The notes beneath the pieces were generated by a model that was not told the origin of the DNA, ran no database searches, and saw only the letters and a program-made list of their open reading frames with translations. Both the position numbers and the translations under genes were made by a program. From the NCBI GenBank assembly GCA_027490225.1, contig JAIXYK010000057.1, forward strand, positions 13,015 to 77,014: 64,000 bases of DNA, given 5' to 3'. This document shows positions 12,291-27,963 of the stretch, piece by piece. This DNA comes from Bacteroidota bacterium. GTDB taxonomy: Bacteria > Bacteroidota > Bacteroidia > M30B66. The number at the start of each line of letters is the position of its first letter. The stretch's first letter is position 1.

Positions 12291-12972
12291 AATTTAGTTT
12301 AGGTAGTAAAACTCAAAGGTAGTTTTCAATAAATTTATAAAAAAGTATTGGTTGGAATAAGATAATAAGATGAAAGCATCAGGAATTATTTATTGATATC
12401 AAATTCAGCATTTAATCGAAACTTTTATTGTTTCATTCAACTTTCGCTGTTAAATCATAATTTCACTTCCAATGGTTCTTTTACTTTATTTAGTTCCATA
12501 GTATATTACCTTAATTGAAGTTGTGTTTTTTATAATAGAAAAAACAAGTTCATATGAGTTGAAACCCATAATTTATTTAGGACTTTATCTTTAAAATGGT
12601 AATTAGAGCGAGATTAAAAAAAAACTAAAGATTCTTAATAAGTTTAAAATCTATTTTATCTAAACTAAAATCTAATCTTTATTTTAAAACAGAATTCCAC
12701 TAAATATGAGTGATTTTTCAACGATTTATTTAAGTAATAGTAATATAATGTTAATTATAAATTAACATGTGTTTTCTTATAATAGGCATTTTTACGAATT
12801 GTTAATAAATATAGGCCTTTCATTTTTATTGTTCAACAGAAAAATATGAAATGTAATTAACCTAATATTAATAACTACTTCACATTGATGTGTTTTTTTA
12901 AAATGACTTTTGTACTCTCAAAAACAGCACATAATTAACGTTAACATTTTATAGTCACTCAAACCACATCAC

Positions 12973-14052
12973 ATGAAAAAACACCTACTATTAGCATTTG
13001 CTGCATTTGCAACCTTTGAAGCATTTAGCCAGAATGGCTTAGAAAATATAATTGTTGAGAAATACTATATTTCTAATGATAACGACGCAACTGTAAATGG
13101 TACCGGCGGAGTTTTGCCAGTTGGTTCTGTAACATATAGAATATATGTAGACATGCAACCAAATTACATACTTCAAGCAATTTATGGTGTACCAGGCCAT
13201 GAAATGAGAATAGCAACAACATCATTGTTTTTTAATAATGAAGATAGAGGAGCAACAACTCCAACATATACAAAGAATCAAGCAAAGAATAATACTGTTA
13301 TGCTAGATTCTTGGTTGTCAGTTGGGGCAGCATGTGCAGGTAACTTTGGAGTTTTAAAAACAGAGGATGACGGAGCAGCCACAAACGTAAATTCTGATGG
13401 AGTTTTGCAAAACACTGATCCAAATGCTGGAATTCCATTAACACAACAAGATGGTTTATTATTAGGTACACCTCAGCCTGTAACTACAGTAGGATTAGAT
13501 AATATTGTTACTGTATTTGATAATCAAAATGATGGTACAAACGGACCTGTGTTTTCTACTTCAGATGGCGCATGGTCAGCACTTAATGGTGCAACAGGTC
13601 CAACACCATCTAATACTGTGCTAATTGCACAAATTACAACAAATGGAATTTTATCTTTTGAGCTGAACATTCAGATTAGAAGTGAAGGAGGCCAGGTAGA
13701 GAATTATGTTGCAAGAAACCCTGTAAATCAGGAGATTTTATTCCCAGGGTTAAATTTTGCCTCTGATTCACCAACAAAGAACTTATTTATAGAGGCAGAA
13801 CAAGCATTGTTCAGTTTGTTTCCAAATCCTGCTAATGAAACTTTATTTGTAAAGTTGAATTCAACTAAAAATGAAATTGGCCGTTATTCAATTTATGATA
13901 TAACAGGTAAATTGGTAACGTTAAAAACTTTAGGTGTTGTAAACGAAGGACAAATTGAAACAATTGACATCTCTCAACTTTCAAAAGGTCAGTACTTTAT
14001 GGATGTCGTTTTAAACGGAAAAAGATATACCGAAAAGTTTATAAAGAATTAA
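12973..14052 (+). CDS. T9SS type-A cargo protein, member of a local 3-gene paralog family (shared ~230-aa N-domain)
   Basis: Signal peptide. N-domain (EKYYISNDNDA...FFNNEDRGATTPTYTKNQA...DSWLSVG) shared with 17173..18510 and 21532..24978. CTD FPNPANETLFVKL...GQYFMDV. Confidence 0.65.
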   Translation: MKKHLLLAFAAFATFEAFSQNGLENIIVEKYYISNDNDATVNGTGGVLPVGSVTYRIYVDMQPNYILQAIYGVPGHEMRIATTSLFFNNEDRGATTPTYTKNQAKNNTVMLDSWLSVGAACAGNFGVLKTEDDGAATNVNSDGVLQNTDPNAGIPLTQQDGLLLGTPQPVTTVGLDNIVTVFDNQNDGTNGPVFSTSDGAWSALNGATGPTPSNTVLIAQITTNGILSFELNIQIRSEGGQVENYVARNPVNQEILFPGLNFASDSPTKNLFIEAEQALFSLFPNPANETLFVKLNSTKNEIGRYSIYDITGKLVTLKTLGVVNEGQIETIDISQLSKGQYFMDVVLNGKRYTEKFIKN

Positions 14053-14073
14053 ATCTTAAAAAATTCATATTAA

Positions 14074-14101
14074 AGACAGGTGTTAAAAACCTGTCTTTTT
14101 A
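14074..14101 (+). terminator. rho-independent terminator
   Basis: 7-bp stem AGACAGG / CCTGTCT, 9-nt loop, then TTTTT. Lies immediately after the 14052 stop. Confidence 0.6.
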
Positions 14102-14115
14102 ATTTATACCTACTT

Positions 14116-17100
14116 ATGAATAGAATTTTACTTTGTATATTAATTATTTGCTTGTATGCTCTAAACAGTTTTTCACAAGGCACTGTAAGAGGTAAAATTA
14201 CAGATGAAAACGGAGAAACTATTATTGGGGCAACAATTGTCTTGAAAGCAAACAAAAGTATTGGAACTATTACTGATTTTGATGGCAATTACTCATTAGC
14301 CATAAAGGATTCTACACTTCAAACTATTATAATTTCCTTTGTTAGTTATAAACCAATTGAGGAAAATGTTAAATTAAAGAAAGGTGAAGTTTTAATCAGA
14401 AATTTTTCTCTAAAACCAAATCAAAACGAAATTAAAGAAGTTGAAATAACTGCAACTGCCATTAAGAATAAGGAATATTTCATGGAGAATATCAAAAAGA
14501 AGTCAGCAGCTTCAATTGATTATATTTCTTCAGAGACAATGAAAAAAACAGGTGATAATAATGTTACAGCTGCAGTTGCCAGGGTAAGTGGTGTTTCTAC
14601 AAATGGAAGCTTTATTACAGTAAGGGGAATAGGTGATAGGTATTTAAAAACCAATATCAATGGAATGAGGATTCCAACATTAGACCCATTCACAAACAAT
14701 ATTAAGCTCGATTTATTTCCAGCAAGTTTGGTAGACAATATTATTATCACAAAAACTGCCTCTCCTGATTTACCAGGCGATTGGGCTGGTGCATATATTT
14801 CTATTGAAACCAAAGATTATCCTGATAAGTTAACTGTTAGTGTAGAATCTCAATTTGGGTATAATGCGCAAACAACTGGAAAAGACATGCTTACTTCAGA
14901 AAGAAGTCAAACTGATTGGTTGGGTTTTGATAATGGATTAAGAAATGTTGACCATAATAGTTTTGTGCAAGTAAATGTCAATCCTACTCAATATCAAGAA
15001 TTTGCAGCATTAGGTTTGGGTAATTATTTACAATCTTTAGGTGTAAATGAGAACTCAGCTTGGAATGATACTTACTATAAGCTTTCTTTGGTAGAACTTG
15101 GTTTATTAGATAAAGGTAGGTTTTATGATGATGCAGCAGTTGCAGCAGCTAAAGCAACTTTTAATGCTGGTGATTATAAAGGAAATGCATTTGCTACAAT
15201 AAATGAAGCTGCTTCAGCATCAAGTCAAAAGTTTGCAAATAACTGGGATACAAAAACCAGAAAAGGCCCTATGAATTTTAGCCAGAGCTTTAGTATTGGA
15301 AATCAGGTGATGCTTTTCGGAAAGCCCTTGGGTTTTTTAACGGGATTTAGATATGGAAGTTCTTTTCAGAATGACCCCAACTCAACGGTAGAAAGGGCAG
15401 GAACCGACAACAATGGAAATGTATTTGTTCCTACATTCATTAATCAGCATGTGAGCAGAGAAATGTACGGTTGGAGTGGATTAGTTAATTTAGCATACAA
15501 ATTTGCTAAAAATCACAGTGTGTCACTTTTGTTTATGCCCAATTTTAATGGAGCAAATAATGTGAGGAATGATGCTGAGTTTGATAATTCTTTCGCTTAT
15601 CAATACACTTACTCTAAGACACAGTTTTATGAAGAAAGAAGGCAAATGATTTATCAGCTCAAAACAGAGCATTATATTCCCAAACCAAAAATTAAAGTAG
15701 AATCTAATGTTTCATACACCAGAGGAAAAAGTAGCGCACCAGATTTTAAAAATTATAATTATTTCTTATCCAACGATAACCAATATATAATTGATAGAAC
15801 AGGCTCATTTACAAGCAGATTTTACAGGTATTTAACTGAAAATTTATTCGATTCTAAAGTTTCAGCAGAAATGCCATTAGGAAACAAACCTTTGCTTGTA
15901 AGAAAAGTAAAGATTGGAGGAGGATTTCAAAGAAACGACAGAGCTAACGACCAATATAATTATATAGCTAAATGGACTATTCCAGGTGCTTATGTAATTC
16001 AAAATGGAGATATATCGCCGTTTTTTGCTTTGAGCGATTTTGCATTAAACAGTAACAATCAAATTATTGCATATTACGAAAGAGATGAAAATCCGGCTAA
16101 TAGAAATATTGGTTACAGCCAGATTGTAAGTGGTTTTGCAATGACTGACTACAGCATTGATTACAGATGGAGGGTTGCTGGAGGATTAAGAATTGAGTCA
16201 GCAAGAATTTTTACAGATGTTTTGGCATATGATTCATTGGGTTATGCAGCCAATGATGGAAGAAGATTTTTTTCTGCTGGAATTCTACCATTACTGCCTA
16301 ATCCAGGAAACTTAGAAAATTTTAATCTCTTGCCGAGTGCCAATGTTATTTTTAAAATAAAACCTGAAGATGATGCGCCTATGAATTTGCGCTTTAACTT
16401 TAGTAAAACAGTTGCAAGACCAAGTATCAGAGAGCTTTCTGAGATAATTGTTCCTGATTTTGAATTACGTGCCAATGTATTTGGAAATTCAGATTTGAAA
16501 ACAGTTGAAATCATGAACTACGATTTAAGATGGGAAAATTATTTTAAATCAGGTGATAATCTTTCTTTCAGTTTGTTTTACAAAGATTTTAAAAATCATA
16601 TTGAACTAACAAACTCAACCTTAGGCTTTACATGGCAGAATATTGATAAATCTGTTGCTTATGGATTGGAATTAGAAGGTAAAAAGCGAATTATTAAAAA
16701 CTTAGAATTCAGAGGAAATATAACTATTACCAATTCTAGTTCTACATTCATACCAACCACTTTAATTTTAGATGGAGGAGTGAAGACTTATGTTCCTTTA
16801 CCAGAAGTTACTAGGTCTATGTTTGGTCAAGCGCCTTATGTTTTAAACGGTATGTTGAATTATAATTCTGATACCTTAGGTTTAACTGCCACTTTAAGTT
16901 ACAATAGACAAGGCAGAAGATTAGTAATAGCAAATGGATTTACCATTCCTGATGTGTATGAAGTACCTAGAAATTTAATTGATTTAAAAATTAGTAAAAA
17001 TCTAGGAAAGCATTTCATTGTATCTCTAACAATAAGAGATATATTGAATTCCCCAATTGTAAGAACTTATGATTTCAAAGAAGGTGATCCAATTGATTTT

Positions 17101-17154
17101 GATAGGTTTAGGTATGGAACAAATTATCAAATTGGAATTCAATATAAATTGTAA
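14116..17154 (+). CDS. TonB-dependent outer membrane receptor with N-terminal carboxypeptidase-regulatory-like domain
   Basis: Signal peptide and CarbopepD_reg-like start (GTVRGKITDENGETIIGATI). Plug domain (ITVRGIGDRYL), long beta-barrel, C-terminal aromatic (YKL). Start set after the upstream terminator; the ORF is open from 14080. Confidence 0.75.
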   Translation: MNRILLCILIICLYALNSFSQGTVRGKITDENGETIIGATIVLKANKSIGTITDFDGNYSLAIKDSTLQTIIISFVSYKPIEENVKLKKGEVLIRNFSLKPNQNEIKEVEITATAIKNKEYFMENIKKKSAASIDYISSETMKKTGDNNVTAAVARVSGVSTNGSFITVRGIGDRYLKTNINGMRIPTLDPFTNNIKLDLFPASLVDNIIITKTASPDLPGDWAGAYISIETKDYPDKLTVSVESQFGYNAQTTGKDMLTSERSQTDWLGFDNGLRNVDHNSFVQVNVNPTQYQEFAALGLGNYLQSLGVNENSAWNDTYYKLSLVELGLLDKGRFYDDAAVAAAKATFNAGDYKGNAFATINEAASASSQKFANNWDTKTRKGPMNFSQSFSIGNQVMLFGKPLGFLTGFRYGSSFQNDPNSTVERAGTDNNGNVFVPTFINQHVSREMYGWSGLVNLAYKFAKNHSVSLLFMPNFNGANNVRNDAEFDNSFAYQYTYSKTQFYEERRQMIYQLKTEHYIPKPKIKVESNVSYTRGKSSAPDFKNYNYFLSNDNQYIIDRTGSFTSRFYRYLTENLFDSKVSAEMPLGNKPLLVRKVKIGGGFQRNDRANDQYNYIAKWTIPGAYVIQNGDISPFFALSDFALNSNNQIIAYYERDENPANRNIGYSQIVSGFAMTDYSIDYRWRVAGGLRIESARIFTDVLAYDSLGYAANDGRRFFSAGILPLLPNPGNLENFNLLPSANVIFKIKPEDDAPMNLRFNFSKTVARPSIRELSEIIVPDFELRANVFGNSDLKTVEIMNYDLRWENYFKSGDNLSFSLFYKDFKNHIELTNSTLGFTWQNIDKSVAYGLELEGKKRIIKNLEFRGNITITNSSSTFIPTTLILDGGVKTYVPLPEVTRSMFGQAPYVLNGMLNYNSDTLGLTATLSYNRQGRRLVIANGFTIPDVYEVPRNLIDLKISKNLGKHFIVSLTIRDILNSPIVRTYDFKEGDPIDFDRFRYGTNYQIGIQYKL

Positions 17155-17172
17155 TTAAAAATATTTTTAGAT

Positions 17173-18510
17173 ATGACAAATGTTAGAAAACAATTCCTAG
17201 CCATTTTATTTTGCCTTTTTTTATCTCCTGTTTTTTCACAAATTGAAAATGTAGTTGTAGAAACATATTACATTTCAGATAGCAATGATGCTACTGATAC
17301 AACTGGCGGTGGAATTGAAATCGGAACTAAAACTTACCGAGTTTATTTAGATTTAGTAGCAGGGACAAGGGTGAAAAAAATATATGGAGATATCAATCAT
17401 CCCTTAATTATTAGTAGTACGCAGAACTTTTTCAACAATAAAGTTGATGGTCAAACTTTTGGTAAAGAATTTACTAAAAACAGATTAGGCGAAAATACTG
17501 TTGCCTTGGATACTTGGATAACATTAGGCCAAACAACTCGAAACGCTGCTGTTACTTACTTCGGTGTATTAAAAGTAAATGATGAAAATTCATTTATAGG
17601 CGGTTCAAATAATGATGGAGGAAGCGAAGCCATCACAAATGGATTATTAACAAATAATATTTCTGAAATGGGAATTCCATTGACAGAAAAAGATGGTATG
17701 GATACCATTTTAAATCCCCCAAATTCTTGGGCAGATTATGGTTTTGCAGATGTTGTTTCTGGAGAAGATTCAACTATTTTTGGATCATTAGTTTCTGGAA
17801 ATAGATTTGAAAGCAGAAATGCGGGATTGCTCAATTCAGGAGTTATTGGAGTTGATTCTTTGTTAAATCATGTTTTGGTTGCACAATTATCTACAAAAGG
17901 TGAAATTGCATTTGAATTAAACATTGAAGTCGAAATTCCATCATTAATTGGTTTTCAAACAGTGAAATATGTTGCCAACGATTCACTTATTGGGGAAGGA
18001 GAAGTATTAAGTCCTTTTTTAAAATACCCTCAACAATGTGGATGTCAAGATGCAAACTATTTAGAATATAGCCCGATTTATGCTTGCAACAATCCTGATT
18101 CATGCAGGAATTTAATAGTTTTCGGTTGCATGGATCCAATGGCTTGCAATTTTAGCAGTACTGCTAATTTTAATATTCAAGATATCTGCTGCTATATTGG
18201 TGATTGCAATGATTTAGATATTTCAATTGTTTGTCCATCTTTAGGAGAAAATGAAATTTCAGAAATCGAGAAATTACGCGTTTTTCCAAATCCTGCTACT
18301 GAAACAATAAATGTAAAGCATAGCTTCACTCAGAATAATGAATTTAAGATTAAGATTTTAGATCACGTAGGAAGAGTTGTTTCAGTATATAATGTTCTTA
18401 ATCCTGAAAATTCAACTGCAATTAATATCTCCAATTTTGCACCGGGTATTTATTTTATTGAGTTGACTTCTAAAGAAGGTATTTCAGCTGAAAAATTTAT
18501 TAAGCAATAA
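17173..18510 (+). CDS. T9SS type-A cargo protein, paralog-family member
   Basis: Same N-domain as 12973 and 21532 (VETYYISDSNDA...FFNNKVDG...DTWITLG). Cys-rich middle. CTD VFPNPATETINVK...GIYFIELTSKEG. Confidence 0.65.
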   Translation: MTNVRKQFLAILFCLFLSPVFSQIENVVVETYYISDSNDATDTTGGGIEIGTKTYRVYLDLVAGTRVKKIYGDINHPLIISSTQNFFNNKVDGQTFGKEFTKNRLGENTVALDTWITLGQTTRNAAVTYFGVLKVNDENSFIGGSNNDGGSEAITNGLLTNNISEMGIPLTEKDGMDTILNPPNSWADYGFADVVSGEDSTIFGSLVSGNRFESRNAGLLNSGVIGVDSLLNHVLVAQLSTKGEIAFELNIEVEIPSLIGFQTVKYVANDSLIGEGEVLSPFLKYPQQCGCQDANYLEYSPIYACNNPDSCRNLIVFGCMDPMACNFSSTANFNIQDICCYIGDCNDLDISIVCPSLGENEISEIEKLRVFPNPATETINVKHSFTQNNEFKIKILDHVGRVVSVYNVLNPENSTAINISNFAPGIYFIELTSKEGISAEKFIKQ

Positions 18511-18526
18511 TTCAATTTTTATTAAA

Positions 18527-19267
18527 ATGAAAAATAGTTTTAAAAAATATAAAAATATTTGTGTTTTAACTCTTTTAATAGGAACAAGCTTTTTGTATTC
18601 TTGCGAAGAAGATACTCCTGTAACTCCTGTTCCAGAGACAGGAACTGTTACTGATGTAAGCGGAAACGTTTATAAAACCGTGAAAATTGGAGAAAAGTGG
18701 TGGATGGCTGAAAATTTGAAAACTACAAAATTTAAAAATGGCAATGACATTCAAACAATAGCAGATGCAGATGATTGGATGCTTGGAGCTGCAGCATATT
18801 GCCAGTTTGAAAATAACCAACTTGCCCCAGGTCTTCTTTATAATTGGGCAGCAGTAAAAAGTGAAAACGGTTTAGCTCCAGACGGCTGGCATATAGCAAC
18901 AGAAGAAGATTGGAAAAATTTGGAGAGACATTTAAAAATGTCAGAAGTTGAAATTAATAAAATAAACTGGAGAGAAGATAATAAGGTTGGAGATAAATTG
19001 AAAATAAAAGGTCCAACCAGTTGGACTAGATTCGAAGATGTTTGGGGTAATAATGAAAGCGGGTTTGAAGCTCTTTCTGGTGGATGTAGATTAAATAATG
19101 GAAACTGGGGAAATCCAGGCATCGGAGCAGCAGGGTTTTGGTGGTCTTCTACTGAAAATGATTACAATACTGCTTGGATGCGACAATTAGATTATAAGAA
19201 ATCTGGTGTTTTTAGATTTTATATTCAAAAAAATTATGGGCTAAGTGTTCGTTGTGTAAAAGATTAA
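18527..19267 (+). CDS. lipoprotein with Fibrobacter succinogenes major paralogous (Fib_succ_major) domain
   Basis: Lipobox LYSC. Motifs GEKWWMAENL, LYNWAAV, DGWHIATEEDW, GFEALSGGCR, GFWWSST. Confidence 0.7.
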   Translation: MKNSFKKYKNICVLTLLIGTSFLYSCEEDTPVTPVPETGTVTDVSGNVYKTVKIGEKWWMAENLKTTKFKNGNDIQTIADADDWMLGAAAYCQFENNQLAPGLLYNWAAVKSENGLAPDGWHIATEEDWKNLERHLKMSEVEINKINWREDNKVGDKLKIKGPTSWTRFEDVWGNNESGFEALSGGCRLNNGNWGNPGIGAAGFWWSSTENDYNTAWMRQLDYKKSGVFRFYIQKNYGLSVRCVKD

Positions 19268-19288
19268 TATCACATTTCTATATGAAAA

Positions 19289-19317
19289 GCCATTTCTTAG
19301 TTGAAATGGCTTTTTTT
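19289..19317 (+). terminator. rho-independent terminator
   Basis: 8-bp stem GCCATTTC / GAAATGGC, 6-nt loop, T7 run. Confidence 0.65.
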
Positions 19318-19661
19318 GTTTTAAGCTATTTCTTACTTTCATTTAAATATCATATAAAAATCGCATTATATTAATATTTAATTAATATTCTTAATTCTTG
19401 ATTTGTTTGATAATTGTAATTTGATTTAAGAATATTATGAATTTCAAATCCTAAGTGCTTATTATTTATAAAAAAATAAAATAATGTAGAGTAAAATGTT
19501 GAATAGTTAAATTTATCATTGCTTTGTTTGATAAATCTAAATTTGACAATCCTTATAACATAGTATTCCAATGTTAATTAAATGTAAATTAAAGATTAAT
19601 AGTAATATTAAATTAAAGTGTTTTAATTTTAACAAATTGAGAAGAATATATAGGTATTAAT

Positions 19662-19687
19662 CCTTATTAATTAATCAATTAATAAGG
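19662..19687. promoter_or_regulatory. perfect 11-bp inverted repeat CCTTATTAATT-aatc-AATTAATAAGG, candidate operator
   Basis: Exact reverse-complement arms with a 4-bp spacer, ~80 bp upstream of the 19768 start codon. Confidence 0.4.
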
Positions 19688-19767
19688 TTTACTTTCCAAT
19701 TTAGTTACTCACAAGGTACACTTTTGTGCCACTCAATGTTGAGTACAAACAACCATATTATTTCATC

Positions 19768-21501
19768 ATGAAAAAAAACCTTACCAAAGTTGCAGCATTC
19801 GCACTACTTGCGATGGCAACAAGTTTCGAGGCTTCTGCGCAATTAGCATCGCAGCAAAACCTTGGAGCAGCTTGTGGATGTCCTCCAGTGGCATCTAGAC
19901 CTACTGTTTCCATGTCAACTCTTGCAGTTGTTGGTGGAGCTACTGATGGAGATTTACTTTCTCCAAACACTGTATTAACTTGCGACAAAACTTATTTGTT
20001 AGACAACAAAATTTATGTGCAAGATGGTAAATCATTGACCATTCAACCAGGTACAGTAATTAAAGGAGTTTCTACTGGAACTACAGCAGCAGCTAACGCA
20101 ATTTTAGTAAACCGTGGCGGTAAAATTTTCGCAAATGGTTCAGCAAGTTGCCCAATCGTATTTACAGCATTTGATGACCAATTAGATGGTACTTATGCAT
20201 TAACAAACAAAGGAAAATGGGGTGGAATCATCCTTTTAGGAAAAGCAAAAAACAACTTAACTACAGCTGCTAATTACAGCGCTGCAGGAACAGTAGGTTT
20301 TGCTGGAACTGCTTTAAATTCAGGATCTGTTACTTTAAGTACAGGTCAAGTAATTCCTTCTGGTTACAATGGTGGTGACGGTGTAGGATTCATTGAAGGT
20401 TTCCTTGCTGCTGATGCACGTAATTTATATGGTATGCCTGTGGGTTATGAAGATGATAACGATAACTCAGGTATCATGCGTTATGTTTCTATCCGTCATG
20501 CTGGTGCTACTGTAGGTGCTAACAACGAAATCAACGGTCTTACATTAGGTTCAGTTGGTCGTGGTACTACTTTAGAGTACATCGAAGTTGTTTCTAACGA
20601 TGATGATGGTATCGAGTTTTTTGGTGGTACTGTTAACTTGAAGTATGCAACAGTTATGTTTAACAATGATGATGCATTCGATTACGATCAAGGTTGGAGA
20701 GGTAAAGGCCAATTCTGGTTTGGTGTTAAATTAGATGCAGCTACATTTACAGGTGGCGACGGTGGTTTCGAGGTTGATGGAGATGATCAAAAATCAAATT
20801 CTTCTTACTTATCTCGTCCAATTATTTATAACGCAACTATGATTGGTAATGGTTCAAACACAACACCTACAGGTGGTGGTTCTGGTCCATTCGCAATTCA
20901 AGCTAAAGAGCGTGCTGAAGGTGAAATTTATTCTTCAATTTTCGCTAACTACAGATCTGGTTTCAACTTAGTAAAATCTTTAGGTACAAGAACTGGAACT
21001 GTAGAAGTTTACCACAACTGGTCAGGTTTTGATGCTACTACTCCAACTCCAGTTGCAATTCCAAAAACTTTCAAAGTAGAATGTAATACTTTCATTGGTA
21101 ACACTGCTGCATTAACAGTAGGTGGTTCTACAGCAAACGTTACTGCTGCTGATAACACTCAATTTGCTGCAGATAACAATGTTTCTGCTGCAACTTTAGC
21201 TGGTTTAGATTTTACATTTGCTGCTACAGGAACTACAGTTTCTGATCAGTACAATGCACAACCAAATCCTGCAGTAGCTACAACTTGTGTTGCTCCTCAA
21301 GATGGTTTCTTTACACCTGCTACTTACCGTGGTGCTTTTGCTTTAGGTCAAACATCTTGGTTAACTGACTGGGCTTATTCAGCTTTAATTGATGCTTCAA
21401 ATAACTTAGTTTCTTGTCCTACAGACTTAACTAAGGATGGAGTTACGAATACCGCAGATTTCCTTAACCTAGTTGGTGAATTCGGTAACTCTTGCGATTA
21501 A
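19768..21501 (+). CDS. secreted Gly/Thr-rich protein with C-terminal dockerin-like calcium-binding segment (no T9SS CTD)
   Basis: Signal peptide MKKNLTKVAAFALLAMATSFEASAQ. Repetitive G/T/N-rich beta-rich sequence. C-terminus CPTDLTKDGVTNTADFLNLVGEFGNSCD has D-x-T-x-D-G...D spacing between two Cys. ORF is open from 19726. Confidence 0.55.
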   Translation: MKKNLTKVAAFALLAMATSFEASAQLASQQNLGAACGCPPVASRPTVSMSTLAVVGGATDGDLLSPNTVLTCDKTYLLDNKIYVQDGKSLTIQPGTVIKGVSTGTTAAANAILVNRGGKIFANGSASCPIVFTAFDDQLDGTYALTNKGKWGGIILLGKAKNNLTTAANYSAAGTVGFAGTALNSGSVTLSTGQVIPSGYNGGDGVGFIEGFLAADARNLYGMPVGYEDDNDNSGIMRYVSIRHAGATVGANNEINGLTLGSVGRGTTLEYIEVVSNDDDGIEFFGGTVNLKYATVMFNNDDAFDYDQGWRGKGQFWFGVKLDAATFTGGDGGFEVDGDDQKSNSSYLSRPIIYNATMIGNGSNTTPTGGGSGPFAIQAKERAEGEIYSSIFANYRSGFNLVKSLGTRTGTVEVYHNWSGFDATTPTPVAIPKTFKVECNTFIGNTAALTVGGSTANVTAADNTQFAADNNVSAATLAGLDFTFAATGTTVSDQYNAQPNPAVATTCVAPQDGFFTPATYRGAFALGQTSWLTDWAYSALIDASNNLVSCPTDLTKDGVTNTADFLNLVGEFGNSCD

Positions 21502-21531
21502 TCCACATAAAATTTAAAAACAAATATTAAA

Positions 21532-24500
21532 ATGAAAAAAATATTTTTAGGCTTAGCTTTGTTATGCTCGGCGGCCTTGGTTAATGCTCAAAATGGGTTA
21601 GAGGCCCTTACTGTTGAGAAATACTACGTTTCTAATGCTACAGATGCTGCAGGAAGCGTTGGAACTTTACCAACAGGTTCTGTAACTTACAGATTCTTTG
21701 TTGACCTTTTACCAGGTTACACTTTCCAAGCAGCTTACGCTGTACCAGGAAGTGGAGGAGTTGGAGCACATCCTTTATTCTTTACTACATCAACAACTTT
21801 CTTCAACAACGAAGATAGAGGAGCTACAACGCCAACATATACAAAAACACAAGCAAGAGGTAACTCAGTAATGTTAGATTCTTGGATTTCTGTTGGTGGT
21901 GTTGCTGCAGGTAACGTAGGTGTATTGAAATCAGAAGATGATGGTGTTGCTACTGTTGTAAACAATAGTGTTCCTCAAATGCTTCAAAATGCTAATGCTT
22001 CTGCAGGTATCGCTTTATCTCTTCAAGATGGTTATTTATTGGGAACTCCAGGAACTGTTACTACAGTAGGAACTCAAATCGTAACTCAATTAGCAGGTTT
22101 AGATGCAACTAGCCAGGCTGCTAGTTCATTTTCTTTAACTGATGGTGCTTGGTCTAATTTAACAGGTTCAACTGGTCCACTAGCTTCTAACAGAATTTGT
22201 ATTGCACAGATTACTACAGATGGTGTTTTAGATTACAAATTAAACATTCAAGTTGGTGTTCCGGCTGCTAATGGTGGTGGTGTTCAGCGTTTTGTTGCTG
22301 ATAACGCTGTTGGTGCTGAGATTGCATTCCCAAGTTTAGCTGGTACATTAGGAGCTCCTAACGTATTACCAACTGTAAGTATTACATCACCAGCTAATGG
22401 TGCTTCTTTTATTACTGGTTCTACTGTAAATATCGCTGCAACAGCTGCTGATGCTGGTGGTTCAATTGCTTCAGTTGCTTTCTTTATTGATGGTGTATTG
22501 TTGTCTACAGATAACACTGCTCCTTACACAGCTTCTTACGTTCCAACTATTGGAAGTGATGCAATTACTGCAGTAGCTACTGATAACGAAGGTGCTCAAA
22601 CAACTTCAACTGCTGTTAACATTACTGTTGCTAACAACCCTCCTCCAACTGTTGCTATTACAGCACCAACTACTGGAGCTTCATTTATTACTGGTTCTAT
22701 TGTTAACATTACTGCTACTGCAACTGATAACGGTTCTGTAACAGGAGTTGAATTTTTAGTTGATGGTGTTGTTATTTCAACAGACAACACTTCTCCTTAC
22801 ACTGCAACATACACTTCTACTTTAGGTGGACACGTATTAACTGCAAGAGCTACTGATAACTTAGGTTTATCAGCAACTTCTACTGCTGTAAACATTACTG
22901 TTGTTAACAACGTGCCTCCAAGTGTAACGCTTACTTCACCTTTAGCTTCTGCTTTATTTACAGCTCCAGCAGTTGTTAATATTACTGCAAATGTTACTGA
23001 TAATGATGGAACTATTGCTTTAGTTGAGTTTTTAGTTAATGGAACTGTTGTAAATTCAACTTCAGTTGGTTCATCTCCATATTCTTTTGCTTGGACAAGT
23101 ACTCCTGGTATTAGAGCATTTTCTGTAAGAGCTACAGATAACAATGGTGGTATTACTACTTCTAACGTTGTAACATTAGAAATTGCTGATCCAAATGCAC
23201 TTCCTTACAGAATTACATCTTCAGTAAATACTTGTAATGCAACTAATTTCTGCTTACCAATCCGCGCTTTAAACACTGTTTCTAACGTTATTGGTTATGA
23301 TATCACAGTTAATTTTGATAACACTAAAGTTGCTCCTGCTGCTTCTAACACTGTAACTGTACTAGGTGATTTAATCAACCCTTCATTTGTAGAGGTTGGA
23401 AGTTCAGTAGATCAAGCTGCTGGTACTATCAACATTTACTTATCATTTAACGGTACAGCTCCTGCTGCAACTCGTTTCTCTGGAACTGGTGATTTATTAT
23501 GTATCAACTTCAACAGATTAGCAGGTTCAACTTCTACTGACGTAGCTTCTTTCTCAGTGCCTTTCTTACAAGAAAGTTATTTCACTGGTGTTCAAGGTAA
23601 ATTAACTCAAAGCGGTACTTATGAAACTTTCAGAGACACTGCATTTAATGGTAAATTAAAACTTTGGTCAGATAATAGCGCAATTGGTTACAATGCAGCT
23701 AATCCAAACCAATTCTTAATCACAAACATTAGAGGTAACAATGCTACTGGTACTGCTCCTTCTGTAACTTTGGTTCAACCAAACACTTTAGGTGAGTTCA
23801 AATACAGCACTAACAATGGTTTGTTTATCAATATCGAAAAAGATATCTTATCTAATACAGATGTTCAAGCTGTTGTAAACGGTTTCGACGCTTTATTAGC
23901 TAGAAGAATCTTATTGAATGATGCTTCTTTCTTACCAAATGTTAATCAAATAGTTGCTGCTGATGTTAACTTAGATGGTGTTATCTCTGCTGGTGATATT
24001 TCTCAAATTAACCAACGTGCAGTATTATTCATTCCTGAATTCAGACAAGCTTGGAATTACAATGCACAAGGTGTTTCTGATGGTCGTCCTTCAAAAGATT
24101 GGTTATTTATTGACTCTGCAAGAGTTGTTTCAAATCCTTTGTATACACGTTCAACTACATATCCTGCTTCTAACGGAACTGGTTTCAACAAGTCAAACGT
24201 ACCTCAAGTACCTTTCAATTTACCAGTTGTAGTAAGTAACTTTGCAGTTTGTCCTGAATTCTCTTTAGAATTTTATAATGGAGTTTTAATTGGAGATGTT
24301 AACGGTAACGTTGCAACTGCAAATCCAAGCAACTTATTCAGAGATGAGGCTAACAAAGTTATTTTCAACTTAAACCAAGCTGTTTATGCTAACAATACAG
24401 TTGAAATTCCAGTTTCTGTTTTAGGAACTAATGTTATAAACTCTGTGGATTTTGCATTACAATTAGATGAGTCTAAACTTTCTTTCAACTCTATTAATAA

Positions 24501-24978
24501 TGTTGATGCTTCTTTAGATGCATTCAGCCACTTTAATACTGAAGACAGAACAGTACGTTTCACATCTAACAACATGGAAGCAATTCAAAATAATGCAGTT
24601 CTTGCTACATTAAAATTGAACATTGTTTCTGGAAATGTTTCTTCTTCTGATATTAAAAACGCAATTTCTTACTTAAACGGTGATGCTTCTGGTGTTGAGT
24701 TTGTAGGAGATTTCTCTACGGGTATCAATGCAGTTGATTTTTCAAATGTAGTTTCTGTTTTCCCTAATCCTGCAAACGAATATGTACAAGTTCTTTCTCC
24801 TGAATCAGCTAACATTCAATTGTTAGATGCTGCTGGTAGATTAGTTCTTGGTTCAATCAATGCAATTGGTGGTCAAACACAAACTATCAACACTTCAGAT
24901 TTATCTGCTGGTGTTTATTTTGTTCGTATTGCAAACGATAATTTTTCAGTAATGAAGAAAATTGTTTTGAACAAATAA
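21532..24978 (+). CDS. large T9SS type-A cargo protein: paralog N-domain + 3 Ig-like repeats + 2 cohesin-like modules + dockerin-like segment + CTD
   Basis: N-domain matches 12973 and 17173. Three ~90-aa repeats. Modules similar to 25122 and 25951. Segment DVNLDGVISAGDISQINQRAV. CTD VFPNPANEYVQVL...GVYFVRIANDNFSVMKKIVLNK. Confidence 0.7.
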   Translation: MKKIFLGLALLCSAALVNAQNGLEALTVEKYYVSNATDAAGSVGTLPTGSVTYRFFVDLLPGYTFQAAYAVPGSGGVGAHPLFFTTSTTFFNNEDRGATTPTYTKTQARGNSVMLDSWISVGGVAAGNVGVLKSEDDGVATVVNNSVPQMLQNANASAGIALSLQDGYLLGTPGTVTTVGTQIVTQLAGLDATSQAASSFSLTDGAWSNLTGSTGPLASNRICIAQITTDGVLDYKLNIQVGVPAANGGGVQRFVADNAVGAEIAFPSLAGTLGAPNVLPTVSITSPANGASFITGSTVNIAATAADAGGSIASVAFFIDGVLLSTDNTAPYTASYVPTIGSDAITAVATDNEGAQTTSTAVNITVANNPPPTVAITAPTTGASFITGSIVNITATATDNGSVTGVEFLVDGVVISTDNTSPYTATYTSTLGGHVLTARATDNLGLSATSTAVNITVVNNVPPSVTLTSPLASALFTAPAVVNITANVTDNDGTIALVEFLVNGTVVNSTSVGSSPYSFAWTSTPGIRAFSVRATDNNGGITTSNVVTLEIADPNALPYRITSSVNTCNATNFCLPIRALNTVSNVIGYDITVNFDNTKVAPAASNTVTVLGDLINPSFVEVGSSVDQAAGTINIYLSFNGTAPAATRFSGTGDLLCINFNRLAGSTSTDVASFSVPFLQESYFTGVQGKLTQSGTYETFRDTAFNGKLKLWSDNSAIGYNAANPNQFLITNIRGNNATGTAPSVTLVQPNTLGEFKYSTNNGLFINIEKDILSNTDVQAVVNGFDALLARRILLNDASFLPNVNQIVAADVNLDGVISAGDISQINQRAVLFIPEFRQAWNYNAQGVSDGRPSKDWLFIDSARVVSNPLYTRSTTYPASNGTGFNKSNVPQVPFNLPVVVSNFAVCPEFSLEFYNGVLIGDVNGNVATANPSNLFRDEANKVIFNLNQAVYANNTVEIPVSVLGTNVINSVDFALQLDESKLSFNSINNVDASLDAFSHFNTEDRTVRFTSNNMEAIQNNAVLATLKLNIVSGNVSSSDIKNAISYLNGDASGVEFVGDFSTGINAVDFSNVVSVFPNPANEYVQVLSPESANIQLLDAAGRLVLGSINAIGGQTQTINTSDLSAGVYFVRIANDNFSVMKKIVLNK
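22371..23190 (+). repeat. three tandem ~270-nt repeats encoding Ig-like domains inside 21532..24978
   Basis: Protein repeats ...SP..GASFITGS.VNI.ATA.D.G......F.VDGV..STDNT.PYTA.Y....G......A.DN.G...TSTAVNITV.NN occur three times. Confidence 0.7.
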
Positions 24979-25000
24979 TAATTAATTAGATTTTTCAAAA

Positions 25001-25032
25001 AGGGTCTTGATTCATTTCAAGGCCCTTTTTTT
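25001..25032 (+). terminator. rho-independent terminator
   Basis: 9-bp stem GGGTCTTGA / TCAAGGCCC with one G-T wobble, 6-nt loop, T7 run. Confidence 0.65.
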
Positions 25033-25121
25033 ATTAAAATTTTTACAAAAACTTAATATTGAAGAATCTAATTTATTAAACTTAAAAATTACATTTACAC
25101 GATAATAAATACTTTGCAACC

Positions 25122-25907
25122 ATGAAAAAATTATTACTTTCTGTTTTTGTACTTACTGGCTTTTCTTTGTTTGGAACGATAAATTTCAATGCAATTGAAG
25201 GTAAGGACAATGACAATAAAAATACCTTAAAGCCTATTACAGAAGGAATCAGAACAATAGATTCTGGAGATACGGTAGTTTTCGACTTAACTCAAATTAC
25301 TGATTTAGGTAATGCAGTTATATTTCCTGTTTCTGTTATTTCAGACGATGTAATCTTATCTTTAGATTTTTCATTAAAATATAACCAAACTGATTTTAAT
25401 TGGGATACAATCATTCCTAATACAACCAATGTATTAAATGCTACACAGAATTTTAATGAGAATGATTTAACGTTACGTTTTAGTTCATATACATTAGATT
25501 TTAATCAAGGGTATTTGTTATCAGAACCAATTGTAGATATTCGTTTTAATGTGCTTGCTGGGGTTTTAGACAGCAGCGATTTGGATATAGTAGCTGTGTA
25601 TTTAAATGGAGATCCTTGCAGCTTTATTGTAAAAGTAGATGCTGCTGTAGGACTTGAAAATACAATGAAAAAAGCAGCATTTGTGAATGTTTTTCCAAAT
25701 CCAACAAGCAATTTTGTAAGTTTGACTTGCAGCGACAATGCAGTTGCTGAAATAGTTGATTTAAATGGAAAATCAATCATTTCCAATATTGAATTAAATG
25801 CGGGGCAAAATACATCAGTTGCCACTAATAATATTGCAAGTGGAATCTATTTTGTAAAATTCACATCATCCAATAAAACACAGTTTAGAAAATTAATCAT
25901 ACAGTAG
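25122..25907 (+). CDS. T9SS type-A cargo protein with single cohesin-like module
   Basis: Signal peptide. Module DTVVFDL...FPVSVISDDVILSLDFSLKYN...LTLRFSS...AVYLNGD. CTD VFPNPTSNFVSL...GIYFVKF. Confidence 0.6.
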   Translation: MKKLLLSVFVLTGFSLFGTINFNAIEGKDNDNKNTLKPITEGIRTIDSGDTVVFDLTQITDLGNAVIFPVSVISDDVILSLDFSLKYNQTDFNWDTIIPNTTNVLNATQNFNENDLTLRFSSYTLDFNQGYLLSEPIVDIRFNVLAGVLDSSDLDIVAVYLNGDPCSFIVKVDAAVGLENTMKKAAFVNVFPNPTSNFVSLTCSDNAVAEIVDLNGKSIISNIELNAGQNTSVATNNIASGIYFVKFTSSNKTQFRKLIIQ

Positions 25908-25950
25908 TAATTTTATTACTTTTGAACTATTGTATTGTTAATTTTTTAGT

Positions 25951-26718
25951 TTGATGAAATATGTTGTCTTGTTTATTTTTAGTTTAAGTATCTTTTCATT
26001 TAGAGGTATTTCCCAAGAAAATGATTTAGATAACATTTTAAAAAACGAAAATTTTATAGACTCTATTTTGTCTAATTTATCATTTACAATTGATGAATTA
26101 GACACTGTAGTTTTTGATATTAATTCTGGAAATTTTAATTCAGATTTCATAGAATTTCCAGTAAGTATTATTAGCGATGATTCTATTTATTCTTTAGATT
26201 TTTCTTTTGAATTTAATAGCTTAAATTATGTTTATGATACTGTTTATCCATTGATTTCTCCAGTTCAATTTCTCGCTTATTTTAATACTGAAGATTTACG
26301 TTTGCGATTTACTTCCAATAGTTTTACAATTTATCCAACATTGACTCCTGTAGTTTTTGTTGGATTTAACATTTTAGACTTTTCATTTTGCGAGTTGAAT
26401 TTTTTTGAGCCCAAGGCATATCTTAATGGCGATAGATGCAGCGTGAAAATTACTGCTTGTCCAGATCCAACATTCATTGAAAAAATAGCCGCTTCCAAAT
26501 TAGTTTACCCAAATCCTGTTATAGATGAACTCTTTATAGCTCAGCCTCAGGGTTCCAAAGTTTACATTTTAGATAACCTTGGAAATATTGTTTATGAAAA
26601 GTTTAATCAACAAATGTCTTCGACTATTTCTATGGAGAAATTTAGTGCTGGAGTGTATTTTTTAAAACTTGAAACGTCCTCCTCAGTAGAATCACATAAG
26701 ATTATTGTTACCAAATAA
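25951..26718 (+). CDS. T9SS type-A cargo protein with single cohesin-like module (paralog of 25122)
   Basis: Module DTVVFDI...FPVSIISDDSIYSLDFSFEFN...LRLRFTS...AYLNGD. CTD VYPNPVIDELFIA...GVYFLKL. Confidence 0.6.
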   Translation: MMKYVVLFIFSLSIFSFRGISQENDLDNILKNENFIDSILSNLSFTIDELDTVVFDINSGNFNSDFIEFPVSIISDDSIYSLDFSFEFNSLNYVYDTVYPLISPVQFLAYFNTEDLRLRFTSNSFTIYPTLTPVVFVGFNILDFSFCELNFFEPKAYLNGDRCSVKITACPDPTFIEKIAASKLVYPNPVIDELFIAQPQGSKVYILDNLGNIVYEKFNQQMSSTISMEKFSAGVYFLKLETSSSVESHKIIVTK

Positions 26719-27239: not shown

Positions 27240-27950
27240 ATGAAAAAAGCTCTTTTTACAATTTCTGTTATCGCGCTTATTGCTTTAATAGGTTGTAAAC
27301 ACGATTTGCAAATGGCAATTACGGAGCTAAATGGAGGATCAGATACAACTGTAATAAATCCTCCACCACCCGTTGATACAATGATTTGTTTTGAATCTCA
27401 AATTTTGCCATTGTTTGTTAGCTCTTGTGCCAAAAGTGGCTGTCATGATGCGATTACAGCAGAAAAGGATTACATTTTAACGAGTTATCAGGCAATAATG
27501 GAAGAGATTGTGCCCTTTAATCCGAATAACAGCAAATTTCTTGAAGTGATGCTTTTGCCGGCAACTGAAAATGATGCAATGCCACCACTTCCAGCTGCAC
27601 GAATGACTGCTGAACAAATTGCTTTAATTACACAATGGATAAATCAAGGTGCCCAAAACACAACAAATTGCGCCAACACATGCGATACAACTCAGTTTCA
27701 ATATACAGCTCATATTAAACCAATAATGTCAACTTATTGCAATGGCTGTCACCAAGGTACGAGTCCTTCGGCAGGAATAAATACATCTACTCATGCAGGA
27801 TTAAGCGCCATTGCAGCAAATGGCAAATTGGTAGGTGTTACCAATCATTTACCAGGATTTTCATTCATGCCACAAAATCAACCTTTAATGGATGCTTGTT
27901 ACAGAACTAAAATTCAGAAATGGGTTTTAGCAGGTGCTCCAAACAATTAA
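27240..27950 (+). CDS. lipoprotein with two c-type-cytochrome-like (PSCyt1-like) domains
   Basis: Lipobox LIGC. ILPLFVSSCAKSGCH (CX4CH) and YCNGCHQG (CXXCH), each followed by ...MPP/MPQ...W(I/V).(Q/A)GA, the Planctomycete-cytochrome-C-type layout. Confidence 0.55.
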   Translation: MKKALFTISVIALIALIGCKHDLQMAITELNGGSDTTVINPPPPVDTMICFESQILPLFVSSCAKSGCHDAITAEKDYILTSYQAIMEEIVPFNPNNSKFLEVMLLPATENDAMPPLPAARMTAEQIALITQWINQGAQNTTNCANTCDTTQFQYTAHIKPIMSTYCNGCHQGTSPSAGINTSTHAGLSAIAANGKLVGVTNHLPGFSFMPQNQPLMDACYRTKIQKWVLAGAPNN

Positions 27951-27963
27951 TTATTATCTAAAT

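Follow-up and report, generated by a model that had tools for sequence, protein, structure and literature searches.

The window, that is, the whole 64,000-nucleotide stretch of Bacteroidota DNA that was analyzed, carries a cluster of eight genes, A to H, which all lie on the forward strand between positions 12973 and 26718 (Table 1). The cluster is wider than the 12973-24978 interval delimited by the first-pass annotation, which had described a family of three paralogs that share an N-terminal domain (N-domain), a TonB-dependent receptor gene without a SusD partner between the first two copies and a Fib_succ_major gene after the second copy. Open reading frames, alignment and BLASTP bear out the three-member family (A, C and F), and the receptor gene B and the Fib_succ_major gene D are located as described. 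That annotation had overlooked the 577-aa gene E between the lipoprotein gene and the third copy, the two small T9SS genes G and H and the cohesin and dockerin-like modules inside the 1148-aa protein F.

Table 1. Genes and sequence features of the cluster (positions in the window).
Feature	Position	Strand	Evidence
Gene A: signal peptide, N-domain, short linker, T9SS type-A CTD (359 aa)	12973..14052	+	ORF; Por_Secre_tail
N-domain copy 1 (aa 21-262 of A)	13033..13758	+	Alignment; AlphaFold model; no Pfam, NCBIfam or PDB match
Terminator/attenuator-like hairpin between A and B, 10-bp stem and T-run	14072..14098	+	Scan
Gene B: TonB-dependent receptor (1012 aa)	14116..17154	+	PF13715, PF07715, PF00593; source gene call starts at 14116
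Gene C: signal peptide, N-domain, 10-Cys module, T9SS CTD (445 aa)	17173..18510	+	ORF, Pfam
N-domain copy 2 (aa 24-285 of C)	17242..18027	+	Alignment; 38% identity to copy 1
Cys-rich spacer of C, ~80 aa, 10 cysteines	18028..18267	+	Cys pattern in orthologs
Gene D: Fib_succ_major (FISUMP) lipoprotein	18527..19267	+	PF09603, E 8.9e-43; TIGR02145
Strong terminator-like hairpin ending the A-D unit, 13-bp stem and T-run	19284..19315	+	Scan
Gene E: secreted Beta_helix_4 protein (577 aa)	19768..21501	+	PF28492 on the 100% identical P0270; alignment
C-terminal tail of E: EF-hand/dockerin-type loop and helix between two Cys	21415..21498	+	Ortholog alignment
Gene F: signal peptide, N-domain, 3 Big_7, cohesin-like, dockerin-like, cohesin, T9SS CTD (1148 aa)	21532..24978	+	
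N-domain copy 3 (aa 21-271 of F)	21592..22344	+	Alignment; 57% identity to copy 1
Three Big_7 Ig-like domains of F (stalk)	22369..23118	+	PF17957, E 1.4e-45, 3 stretches
Cohesin-like module 1 of F (aa 554-709)	23191..23658	+	PF00963, 21.8 bits, E 2.3e-4, cut-off 24.1
Dockerin-like module of F (aa 781-828)	23872..24015	+	PF00404, 21.5 bits, cut-off 22.9
Cohesin module 2 of F (aa 938-1062)	24343..24717	+	PF00963, 28.2 bits, E 2.5e-6
Gene G: signal peptide, cohesin-type module, T9SS CTD (261 aa)	25122..25907	+	Homology to F; CTD E 1.9e-13
Gene H: paralog of G (254 aa)	25954..26718	+	31% identity to G, E 3e-29; CTD E 2.8e-12

The N-domain immediately follows the signal peptide in A, C and F, whose N-termini align over 242-262 residues. 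The shared domain is thus real, and its size is about 240-260 aa rather than the ~230 aa originally estimated. BLASTP between the copies gave E values of 2e-41 and 2e-70, well beyond chance, and by tblastn the window has three copies and no more. A possible decayed fourth copy was rejected, since the same search detected no remnant in the 680-bp spacer ahead of A. The N-domain is a new, unnamed family. Identity with a well-known family, which the first-pass annotation had named as grounds for giving up its reading, was not found: neither Pfam nor NCBIfam gave a match even at E<=10, and the PDB yielded no sequence match and no significant fold match. The domain was modeled with AlphaFold from a 63-sequence alignment (pLDDT 95.1, pTM 0.93); this model replaced a first one from a shallow alignment of 31 sequences, which had reached a pLDDT of 69.6 and left the conserved insert unresolved. 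The most conserved motifs are located in a 110-residue insert and not in the sandwich core. Sequence homology between the N-domain and the cohesins of the same locus was also considered and rejected (hhalign probability 0.1).

The N-domain family comprises 1075 clusters at 50% identity, and the domain directly follows the signal peptide in nearly all of them. In 48 long family members, its only partners are Ig-like or stalk modules and CTDs, and known catalytic domains are absent. Across 246 domains, 25 positions are conserved at a level of at least 95%; they are mostly polar, are identical across the paralog classes and include E9, D18, R36, H56, N68, D92, K109, D112, D140, N194, Q200 and N212. 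The best cross-species match stays in its own paralog class in 74/75, 63/63 and 42/46 cases, which marks the paralogs as orthogroups of ancient origin. A single position is class-specific, which, together with the 25 residues common to all classes, suggests that the paralogs share one chemistry and differ in geometry. The chemistry may be that of a binder, and a catalytic or docking role could also apply.

The paralogs differ in what separates the N-domain from the cell surface. All three end in a T9SS CTD, as had been noted (Por_Secre_tail PF18962, E 1e-14 to 1e-15; in A at aa 282-357 with E 2.8e-14). With type-A cargo defined by an N-terminal Sec signal and a PF18962 or TIGR04183 score over the curated threshold, the CTD scores are 53.6 bits for A, 57.7 for C, 56.1 for F, 50.9 for G and 47.2 for H against a cut-off of 27, and hydrophobic N-termini are seen in the translations. 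The spacer of C contains exactly 10 cysteines with identical spacing in 60/63 orthologs and has no match in Pfam or NCBIfam. F is far longer than A and C, and its cohesin module 2 scores above the PF00963 gathering score of 24.1, as do 7/14 homologous modules; the profile of this module matches the cohesins 2xdh_A and 10us_A in the PDB. Cohesin-like module 1 is matched by PF00963 in 6/13 homologs and is present in 38 F orthologs, among those visible to that length. Type I dockerins are defined by a PF00404 score of 22.9 bits and two Ca-binding repeats, and the dockerin-like module of F stays slightly below this score; the best PDB match of its profile is the dockerin 4fl4_A (E 0.0032). G shares homology with the C-terminal 210 aa of F (E 6e-28), and both G and H correspond to the cohesin and CTD part of F. 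G-type modules adjoin the cluster in many loci.

B is a TonB-dependent transporter with an N-terminal carboxypeptidase-regulatory-like domain (CarbopepD_reg_2), a plug (PF07715, 44.4 bits) and a barrel (PF00593, 88.5 bits), the latter two above their cut-offs. A TonB-box-like KEVEITA motif was recognized by eye between the N-terminal extension and the plug. Assignment of B to SusC/RagA (TIGR04056) was rejected because the score is 76.9 bits against a cut-off of 368.25 and the match is confined to residues 35-174. The nearest subfamily is TonB-Xanth-Caul (TIGR01782), which matches in the C-terminal half; at 184.2 bits against a cut-off of 310, B is not a member. PDB matches to the B profile cover the N-terminal extension and plug only, and the barrel is without a close characterized relative. 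Among the genes from 12973 to 26718, no Pfam or NCBIfam match to the SusD family was detected, and the locus is not a SusC/SusD polysaccharide utilization locus (PUL).

Surface lipoproteins of Bacteroidota carry a negatively charged export signal after the lipobox cysteine. The lipobox cysteine of D is followed by an acidic run (LYSC-EEDT in the window; K/E and acidic residues in orthologs, as in SCKKEEE, SCEKDSD and ACEDD), and D is therefore probably a surface-exposed lipoprotein, as far as this signal predicts. Its FISUMP identity is clear from PF09603 (147.2 bits, cut-off 33.9) and TIGR02145 (100.1 bits, cut-off 41.65). FISUMP proteins are frequently lipoproteins, and FISUMP motifs overlap the C-type-lectin-type variable ligand-binding regions of DGR targets (PMC5758913).

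E belongs to the Beta_helix_4 proteins. PF28492 is annotated on P0270 and on all 120 listed homologs, and the acidic rung motifs of E are conserved; the E profile had no matches among PDB sequences. E has a Sec signal but neither a CTD nor a lipobox. E is presumed to be exported across the outer membrane, but a Sec signal alone does not account for that step, which counts against the reading proposed below. In place of an anchor, E ends in a Ca-loop tail (CPTDLTKDGVTNTADFLNLVGEFGNSCD), which is present, with the CTD absent, in 19/19 aligned E orthologs. In two E paralogs located beside paralogous receptors, a T9SS CTD replaces the Ca-loop tail. The tail consists of one repeat only and has no Pfam match, and its likeness to dockerin is at the motif level only; its hhalign match to the dockerin-like repeat of F is weak (P 0.0016, probability 16%). 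The Ca-loop tail may dock E onto the F/G/H scaffold. Against this, the E protein of the divergent genome L093 also has such a tail but is encoded beside N-domain proteins in which no cohesin module was found.

The cluster appears to be transcribed as two units. Hairpins comparable to that between A and B (at most -12 kcal/mol with a T-run) follow A in 23/75 loci, as opposed to 0/65 after B and 0/60 after C. This enrichment after A fits abundant expression of the binder gene and lower expression of the receptor gene behind it. Equivalents of the hairpin after D were found in 18/48 loci and are absent after E. Rfam returned no family at the gathering threshold and no riboswitch between 10 and 26 kb, and no E. 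coli-type Fur box was found in the window. A sigma-70 scan gave no more sites than shuffled sequence, and this consensus is not applicable to Bacteroidota.

Gene order was compared across 80 species-level loci of uncultured Bacteroidota, in which the linkage of the receptor to N-domain genes, a synteny check proposed by the first-pass annotation, proved near-invariant. Receptor B has an N-domain gene directly upstream in 59/60 loci and directly downstream in 56/57. D comes next after C in 58/58 loci, E comes after D in 44/54, and in 44/44 the gene after E encodes an N-domain. Where the two units have changed places (L007, L090), they still lie side by side. At least 56 of ~60 species retain the succession of N-domain gene, receptor and C-D at protein identities of 40-70%, and this retention speaks for a functional unit. 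The carriers are many uncultured MAG lineages that, to go by the sample names, come from lakes, rivers and other environments. For E-F, the part of higher GC, horizontal transfer was considered and rejected because GC3 is uniform (0.17-0.22) over genes A-H. The locus encodes no regulator, CAZyme, peptidase or phosphatase that would hint at a substrate. In three of ~9 loci seen beyond the cluster (L088, L007, L087), pst (phosphate-transport) genes lie within a few kb; this is a weak hint of a phosphate link, and pst genes are not near the cluster in the six other contexts. We found no description in the literature of the locus, of FISUMP genes beside receptors or of T9SS-linked cohesin-dockerin systems.

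What is the biological function of the locus? Domain composition, sorting signals, paralogy, synteny and the conservation of the same residues in all paralogs are the observations from which we tentatively propose, at a little less than even confidence, that the locus is a conserved set of two transcription units for nutrient capture and import at the outer membrane and resembles a PUL without the SusC/SusD pair. Ligand binding by the N-domain heads, docking and export of E and the nature of the substrate are inferences in this proposal. Unit 1 (A | B-C-D) would comprise the non-SusC transporter B, flanked by the T9SS-anchored head proteins A, with almost no stalk, and C, with a rigid 10-Cys spacer, both of which would display the head near the membrane, and D as a surface-exposed, C-type-lectin-related lipoprotein. 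Unit 2 (E-F-G-H) would comprise the scaffold-like F, which raises its head on a long Ig stalk and also bears cohesin and dockerin-like modules, the two small anchored cohesin proteins G and H, and the beta-helix protein E, which lacks an anchor of its own and would rely on its tail for attachment. The heads may bind one common ligand, probably a polymer and possibly anionic, at several heights above the cell. E would then bind or cleave the ligand, D and the membrane-proximal heads would hand the product to B, and B would import it using TonB energy. A surface capture-and-import locus had already been suggested, and surface sorting signals and synteny sustain that idea; its three-part picture of binder, importer and lipoprotein was incomplete, as it lacked the Beta_helix_4 protein and the cohesin and dockerin-like modules. 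A more far-reaching reading, which we consider unlikely, is that the locus encodes a T9SS-anchored cohesin-dockerin surface complex, a Gram-negative 'mini-cellulosome', linked both physically and genetically with a TonB-dependent importer, with the new head targeting or cleaving the substrate and the single-repeat dockerin recruiting the unanchored beta-helix subunit.

The conservation pattern of the N-domain is also what an enzyme would present. The domain could be catalytic and represent a new family of enzymes that cleave, for instance, glycans, esters or phosphoesters; T9SS would display it at several distances from the cell while the receptor takes up the products and D and E act as binders. 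The 25 mostly polar positions identical in all paralog classes, the concentration of the most conserved motifs in the insert rather than the core, and the pst genes near three loci are in line with this doubtful alternative. The N-domain itself, as a cohesin-like sandwich, might instead be the docking receptor for the Ca-loop tail of E, which would make A, C and F anchors that show E, the real functional subunit, around the receptor; we regard such an arrangement as distinctly unlikely.

The position of A relative to B calls to mind the hmuY-hmuR and husA-husB operons, in which the binder gene comes first. A might accordingly resemble a hemophore or metallophore that captures heme, a metal or a cofactor for the receptor, with the other paralogs as variants. 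The attenuator-like hairpin between the two genes and the invariant His, Tyr and acidic residues of the N-domain would suit this role. However, no Fur-box-like site was found in the window and no riboswitch between 10 and 26 kb, the N-domain is not similar to HmuY, HusA, BtuG or other known families, and small-ligand systems do not feature scaffold forms with long stalks, cohesins or a beta-helix protein, which renders the role very unlikely. Least probable is a role of the N-domain proteins as adhesins, be it in gliding or in attachment to particles, algae or other cells, with the receptor and the lipoprotein as mere neighbors, given that the gene order is so widely held and that A, essentially without a stalk, has a poor geometry for adhesion.

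The proposed capture-and-import locus shares with SusC/SusD PULs a TonB-dependent transporter with a carboxypeptidase-regulatory-like extension, co-encoded surface ligand-binding proteins, a possible processing protein and a conserved operon-like cluster. However, the transporter is not SusC-type (TIGR04056 matches the first ~140 aa only), the locus lacks SusD, a recognizable CAZyme and an HTCS or ECF regulator, and its accessory proteins, except for D, are T9SS-anchored rather than lipoproteins. In the HmuY-HmuR, BtuG-BtuB and XusB-XusA systems, a dedicated surface protein captures the ligand for an adjacently encoded TonB-dependent transporter. The locus is similar in that the gene of the binder leads and probably has the higher expression, whereas its binder has an unrelated fold, is T9SS-anchored, exists in 3-6 paralogs that differ in their stalks and has cohesin/dockerin-like modules and the beta-helix protein alongside it.

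In its architecture, F is reminiscent of a cellulosomal scaffoldin, with a targeting head, spacers, cohesins and a cell anchor; G and H resemble anchoring scaffoldins, and E resembles an unanchored subunit with its Ca-loop tail. Unlike cellulosomes, the locus belongs to a Gram-negative host and uses T9SS CTD anchoring instead of SLH or sortase, its dockerin match is sub-threshold, the E tail has just one, disulfide-closed repeat, known glycoside hydrolases are missing and the assembly would be coupled to a TonB-dependent importer. SprB/RemA-type adhesins and CHU-type proteins have the same layout of a signal peptide, an N-terminal functional head, Ig-like repeats and a C-terminal sorting domain, but the head of the locus represents a new family whose genes keep a fixed place beside those of the receptor, the lipoprotein and the beta-helix protein.

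Bacteroidota feed mainly through TonB-dependent uptake loci that include accessory proteins at the surface. To our knowledge, nearly all mechanistic insight into such loci comes from SusC/SusD systems in cultured strains of gut and marine origin. The locus is built from different parts: a non-SusC receptor, T9SS-anchored heads whose fold has not been described, a lipoprotein with a lectin fold and modules of the cohesin and dockerin-like type. The N-domain, as a sizeable unnamed family with a confident model, is ready for Pfam curation and biochemical tests. If E does dock onto the scaffold, a cohesin-dockerin assembly would exist at the Gram-negative outer membrane beside an importer. If the unlikely mini-cellulosome reading were to hold, the locus would represent a third nutrient-acquisition architecture of Bacteroidota, besides SusCD PULs and free T9SS enzymes.

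The locus is a co-directional run of eight plus-strand genes, A to H, at 12.9-26.7 kb of the window. A, C and F share an N-terminal domain (N-domain) of 242, 262 and 251 residues, respectively, each following a signal peptide. Copy 1 (A) is 38% identical to copy 2 (C; BLASTP E-value 2e-41) and 57% identical to copy 3 (F; 2e-70), and tblastn with 246 family members as queries locates these three copies and no more in the window. The first-pass annotation had claimed three such proteins, each ending in a T9SS C-terminal sorting domain (CTD), with a TonB-dependent receptor between copies 1 and 2 and a Fib_succ_major gene after copy 2. Alignment, BLASTP and tblastn bear out the shared domain, the type-A sorting domain PF18962 scores 54-58 bits at the three C-termini (cut-off 27), and the domain content of B and D agrees with the rest of the claim. 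Gene E, genes G and H and the module content of F were absent from that account.

Features of the locus and its surroundings (window positions)
Feature	Position	Strand	Description
Upstream genes	22-6279, 7314-9284		ABC exporter pair with HlyD-type adaptor and outer-membrane factor genes, then 656-aa WG_beta_rep protein
T9SS cargo gene	10434-12290		PKD/T9SS protein, transcribed divergently from A
Spacer	12291-12972		682-bp, non-coding, unusually long, very AT-rich
Gene A	start 12973	+	359 aa; signal peptide, N-domain, CTD
Hairpin	14072-14098		10-bp, T-run; between A and B
Gene B	start 14116 (source gene call)	+	1012 aa; CarbopepD_reg_2, Plug, barrel domains
Gene C	start 17173	+	445 aa; signal peptide, N-domain, Cys module, CTD
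Cys-rich spacer of C	18028-18267	+	80-aa module, exactly 10 cysteines
Gene D	directly after C	+	Fib_succ_major, E 8.9e-43
Hairpin	19284-19315		13-bp, T-run; after D
Gene E	19768-21501	+	577 aa; Beta_helix_4 (PF28492)
Gene F	start 21532	+	1148 aa; signal peptide, N-domain, multi-module stalk, CTD
Gene G	25122-25907	+	261 aa; signal peptide, cohesin-type module, T9SS CTD
Gene H	25954-26718	+	254 aa; paralog of G, same plan
Downstream cluster	27240-30932		236-aa protein with weak cytochrome-c-type motif (PSCyt1), 138-aa ORF, YceI-like protein, DUF5777 membrane beta-barrel, acyltransferase_3
SprB-repeat gene	31119-38981		2620 aa; CHU_C (type-B T9SS) C-terminus; gliding-adhesin-like
T9SS cargo gene	43824-47852		DUF4961
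T9SS cargo gene	48037-49554

One genome per GTDB species was scanned, which yielded 304 loci, and ORFs in the best 80 of the 304 were labelled by BLASTP and an N-domain HMM. All 80 are from uncultured Bacteroidota, with sample names mostly of lakes, rivers and other environmental metagenomes, and their proteins are 40-70% identical to those of the window. The synteny with a TonB receptor that the first-pass annotation had proposed to check is retained: an N-domain gene precedes B in 59/60 loci and follows it in 56/57. D follows C in 58/58 loci, E follows D within 1.2 kb in 44/54, and an N-domain gene follows E in 44/44. The locus is real and strongly conserved. Many genomes carry one or two additional N-domain genes upstream of A. 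The E-F-(G-H) block is placed upstream of A-B-C-D in two species (loci L007 and L090) and parted from it by other genes in two more (L088 and L089); therefore, A-B-C-D and E-F-(G-H) are two units that stay together.

The ABC exporter and WG_beta_rep genes are not conserved with the locus, and the downstream cluster accompanies it in the closest relative (L091) only. The window is dense in T9SS substrates. Phosphate ABC transporter genes (pstS, pstC, pstA) are found within the cluster or at most a few kb away in L088 (1709-4922, accompanied by LMW phosphatase and ArsR-type genes), L007 (18642-20580) and L087 (21200-21590) and are absent from six other locus contexts; these neighbours point only weakly to a link with phosphorus.

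What kind of domain do A, C and F share? With the threshold relaxed to E<=10, Pfam-A and NCBIfam still give no match for any of the three copies. Scanning of 63 family members singly reveals no recurrent family beyond the C-terminal Ig and CTD parts, and neither a single sequence nor a 63-sequence profile matches PDB chains outside the CTD. Structure prediction from a shallow alignment was poor (pLDDT 69.6); with 63 sequences, each sharing less than ~66% identity with the query, a second model reached high confidence (pLDDT 95.1, pTM 0.93). It predicts some ten strands in a beta-sandwich, and the most conserved motifs (FFNNEDRG, NTVMLDSW, GVLKxEDDG and IPLTxQDG) are in a 110-residue excursion from it (residues 63-172). 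The best Foldseek match of this model in the PDB has an E-value of only 0.029, BFVD yields no structural match, and the locus's own cohesin modules show no profile-profile similarity to the N-domain (probability 0.1). Thus, the core as modelled is a generic sandwich and the whole domain is without a solved counterpart, and the earlier statement that the domain has no nameable family stands for Pfam-A, NCBIfam, PDB sequences and fold searches of the PDB and BFVD. A literature search found no description of the locus or its head domain.

Among 1.84 billion cluster representatives searched exhaustively with HMMER, 1075 N-domain clusters score E<=1e-3, of which 793 reach E<=1e-10. A word-indexed search of 5.8 billion proteins gives more than 3200 matches, all from Bacteroidota MAGs and all named 'hypothetical' or 'T9SS type A sorting domain-containing'. 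The domain nearly always starts at about residue 20-30, straight after the signal peptide, and some proteins contain 2-4 tandem copies. A single ORF with four copies lies directly upstream of a B-type receptor (L085, 822-3947), and a 2513-aa T9SS protein with three copies lies downstream of an E homolog (L093, 1876-9414). Por_Secre_tail occurs in 42 of 48 long family members; the other partners (Big_7, DUF4982, BiPBP_C, Ig_7, PKD, TSP3 and EF-hand) are stalk or spacer modules, and no known catalytic domain is among them. Once the protein is T9SS-anchored by its C-terminus, the N-domain would form a distal head.

The N-domain paralogs are old. Between species, a copy has its best match in its own positional class in 74/75 cases for A, 63/63 for C, 42/46 for F and 43/46 for upstream-A. 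Over all 246 N-domains, 25 positions reach a conservation of 95% or more (including E9, Y12, D18, T34, R36, H56, N68, D92, K109, D112, D140, N194, Q200, T203 and N212) and only one is class-specific, which points to paralogs that probably keep one chemistry and differ in the part after the head. This part is almost nothing in A, a 10-cysteine module in C and a ~800-residue multi-module stalk in F. The C module (CGCxDxxYLEY...GCxDxxACNYDPxANF...CCYPGxCNDRD...VCP) is kept in 60/63 orthologs and has no family match. CGC opens both this module and the mature N-terminus of E.

B is not a SusC-type receptor: TIGR04056 covers residues 35-174 only (77 against a cut-off of 368), and the nearest subfamily, TIGR01782, is below threshold (184 against 310). 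PDB profile matches to B are limited to the N-terminal extension and plug. The locus would function like a PUL or a binder-plus-receptor operon, but both the SusC and SusD tests were negative. In every D ortholog, a lipobox cysteine precedes Lys/Glu and a stretch of acidic residues (SCKKEEE, SCEKDSD, ACEDD), a mark of surface-exposed lipoproteins in Bacteroidota known from the lipoprotein-export-signal literature. Fib_succ_major proteins are often lipoproteins, and their motifs overlap the C-type-lectin-type variable ligand-binding regions of diversity-generating-retroelement targets (PMC5758913). A literature search found no account of such (FISUMP) lipoproteins paired with receptors.

PF28492 is found on P0270, which is 100% identical to E, and on all 120 homologs listed. 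In the E alignment, the signal peptide is followed by an NLGAxCGCPP motif, acidic motifs are stacked on the beta-helix rungs (DDNDNSG, DDDGIExFGG, NDDxFDYDxGW, DNGxExDGDDQK), and neither a CTD nor a lipobox is present. The C-terminal tail (CPTDxNxDGxTNNxDFLxLLGxFxxSC) is an EF-hand/dockerin-type loop plus helix closed by two cysteines. In two E paralogs directly upstream of paralogous receptors (L025 and L074), a T9SS CTD replaces this tail, which therefore looks like an alternative attachment device. As isolated modules, F residues 938-1062 match Pfam cohesin (28.2 bits, cut-off 24.1) and residues 554-709 fall just under threshold (21.8 bits; match in 6/13 homologs). Most fetched loci end inside F, and among orthologs visible far enough, 38 contain the first cohesin-like module. 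At E<=1, a profile of the C-terminal half of F matches only dockerins and one cohesin in the PDB. The cohesin-plus-CTD end of F has homologs in G and H (E 6e-28), and G-type modules recur beside the cluster, at times as the N-terminus of larger T9SS proteins. The scaffold part resembles a cellulosome in organization; however, the locus is T9SS-anchored in a Gram-negative host and without known glycoside hydrolases, and its dockerin-like match (F residues 781-828, PF00404) reaches 21.5 bits, below the cut-off of 22.9.

A hairpin of <=-12 kcal/mol with a T-run behind it, no more than 110 nt from the stop codon, occurs after A in 23/75 loci and after D in 18/48 but never after B (0/65), C (0/60) or E (0/40), and the stems are unrelated in sequence from locus to locus. 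The hairpins at the A and D junctions suggest a layout of A / B-C-D / E-F..., in which A may be transcribed in excess of the receptor. The spacer upstream of A contains no N-domain remnant, Rfam match or Fur-box-like site. GC is 0.37-0.39 at 20001-24000 versus 0.31-0.32 over A-D. Because GC3 stays at 0.17-0.22 in all genes from A to H, the GC excess of E and F reflects Ala/Gly/Thr-rich protein composition, and a foreign origin of E-F is rejected.

The locus thus combines a deeply conserved gene set, products with outer-membrane or surface sorting signals, a central TonB-dependent importer, one head domain on at least three different stalks, a lipoprotein of lectin fold, anchored proteins with cohesin modules and a beta-helix protein that has a Ca-loop tail but no anchor. 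We tentatively propose, at somewhat less than an even chance for the mechanism as a whole, TonB-dependent capture and import, a function that we wholly infer. A single putative ligand would be bound by heads at several heights above the cell, with F far out, C intermediate and A at the membrane beside B. E, which would have to cross the outer membrane first, would dock on the F, G and H cohesins and bind or cleave what the heads have captured; a Ca2+-dependent contact with an anionic polymer would fit the stacked acidic rungs of E. The product would then pass from D and the proximal heads to B for import. The capture-and-import reading of the first-pass annotation is thereby partly supported, by synteny and sorting signals, and is extended by E, G, H and the F modules.

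Other readings are less favored. The many invariant polar residues of the N-domain could mark a new enzyme, an unlikely reading given the architecture and the lack of a catalytic-fold match. That the N-domain itself is the receptor for the E tail is improbable: E adjoins an N-domain gene in all 44 loci, and in L093 an E with the same tail neighbors five N-domains where no cohesin was found, but the comparison with cohesins is negative and family members occur without E. A hemophore- or metallophore-like small-ligand system is quite improbable, as a Fur box and a riboswitch were looked for and neither was found. The least probable is that the proteins are pure adhesins with incidental neighbors, which synteny contradicts. 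If the locus acts in TonB-dependent capture and import, it would bring to such systems both a new family of domains and, unexpectedly, a cohesin/dockerin element.
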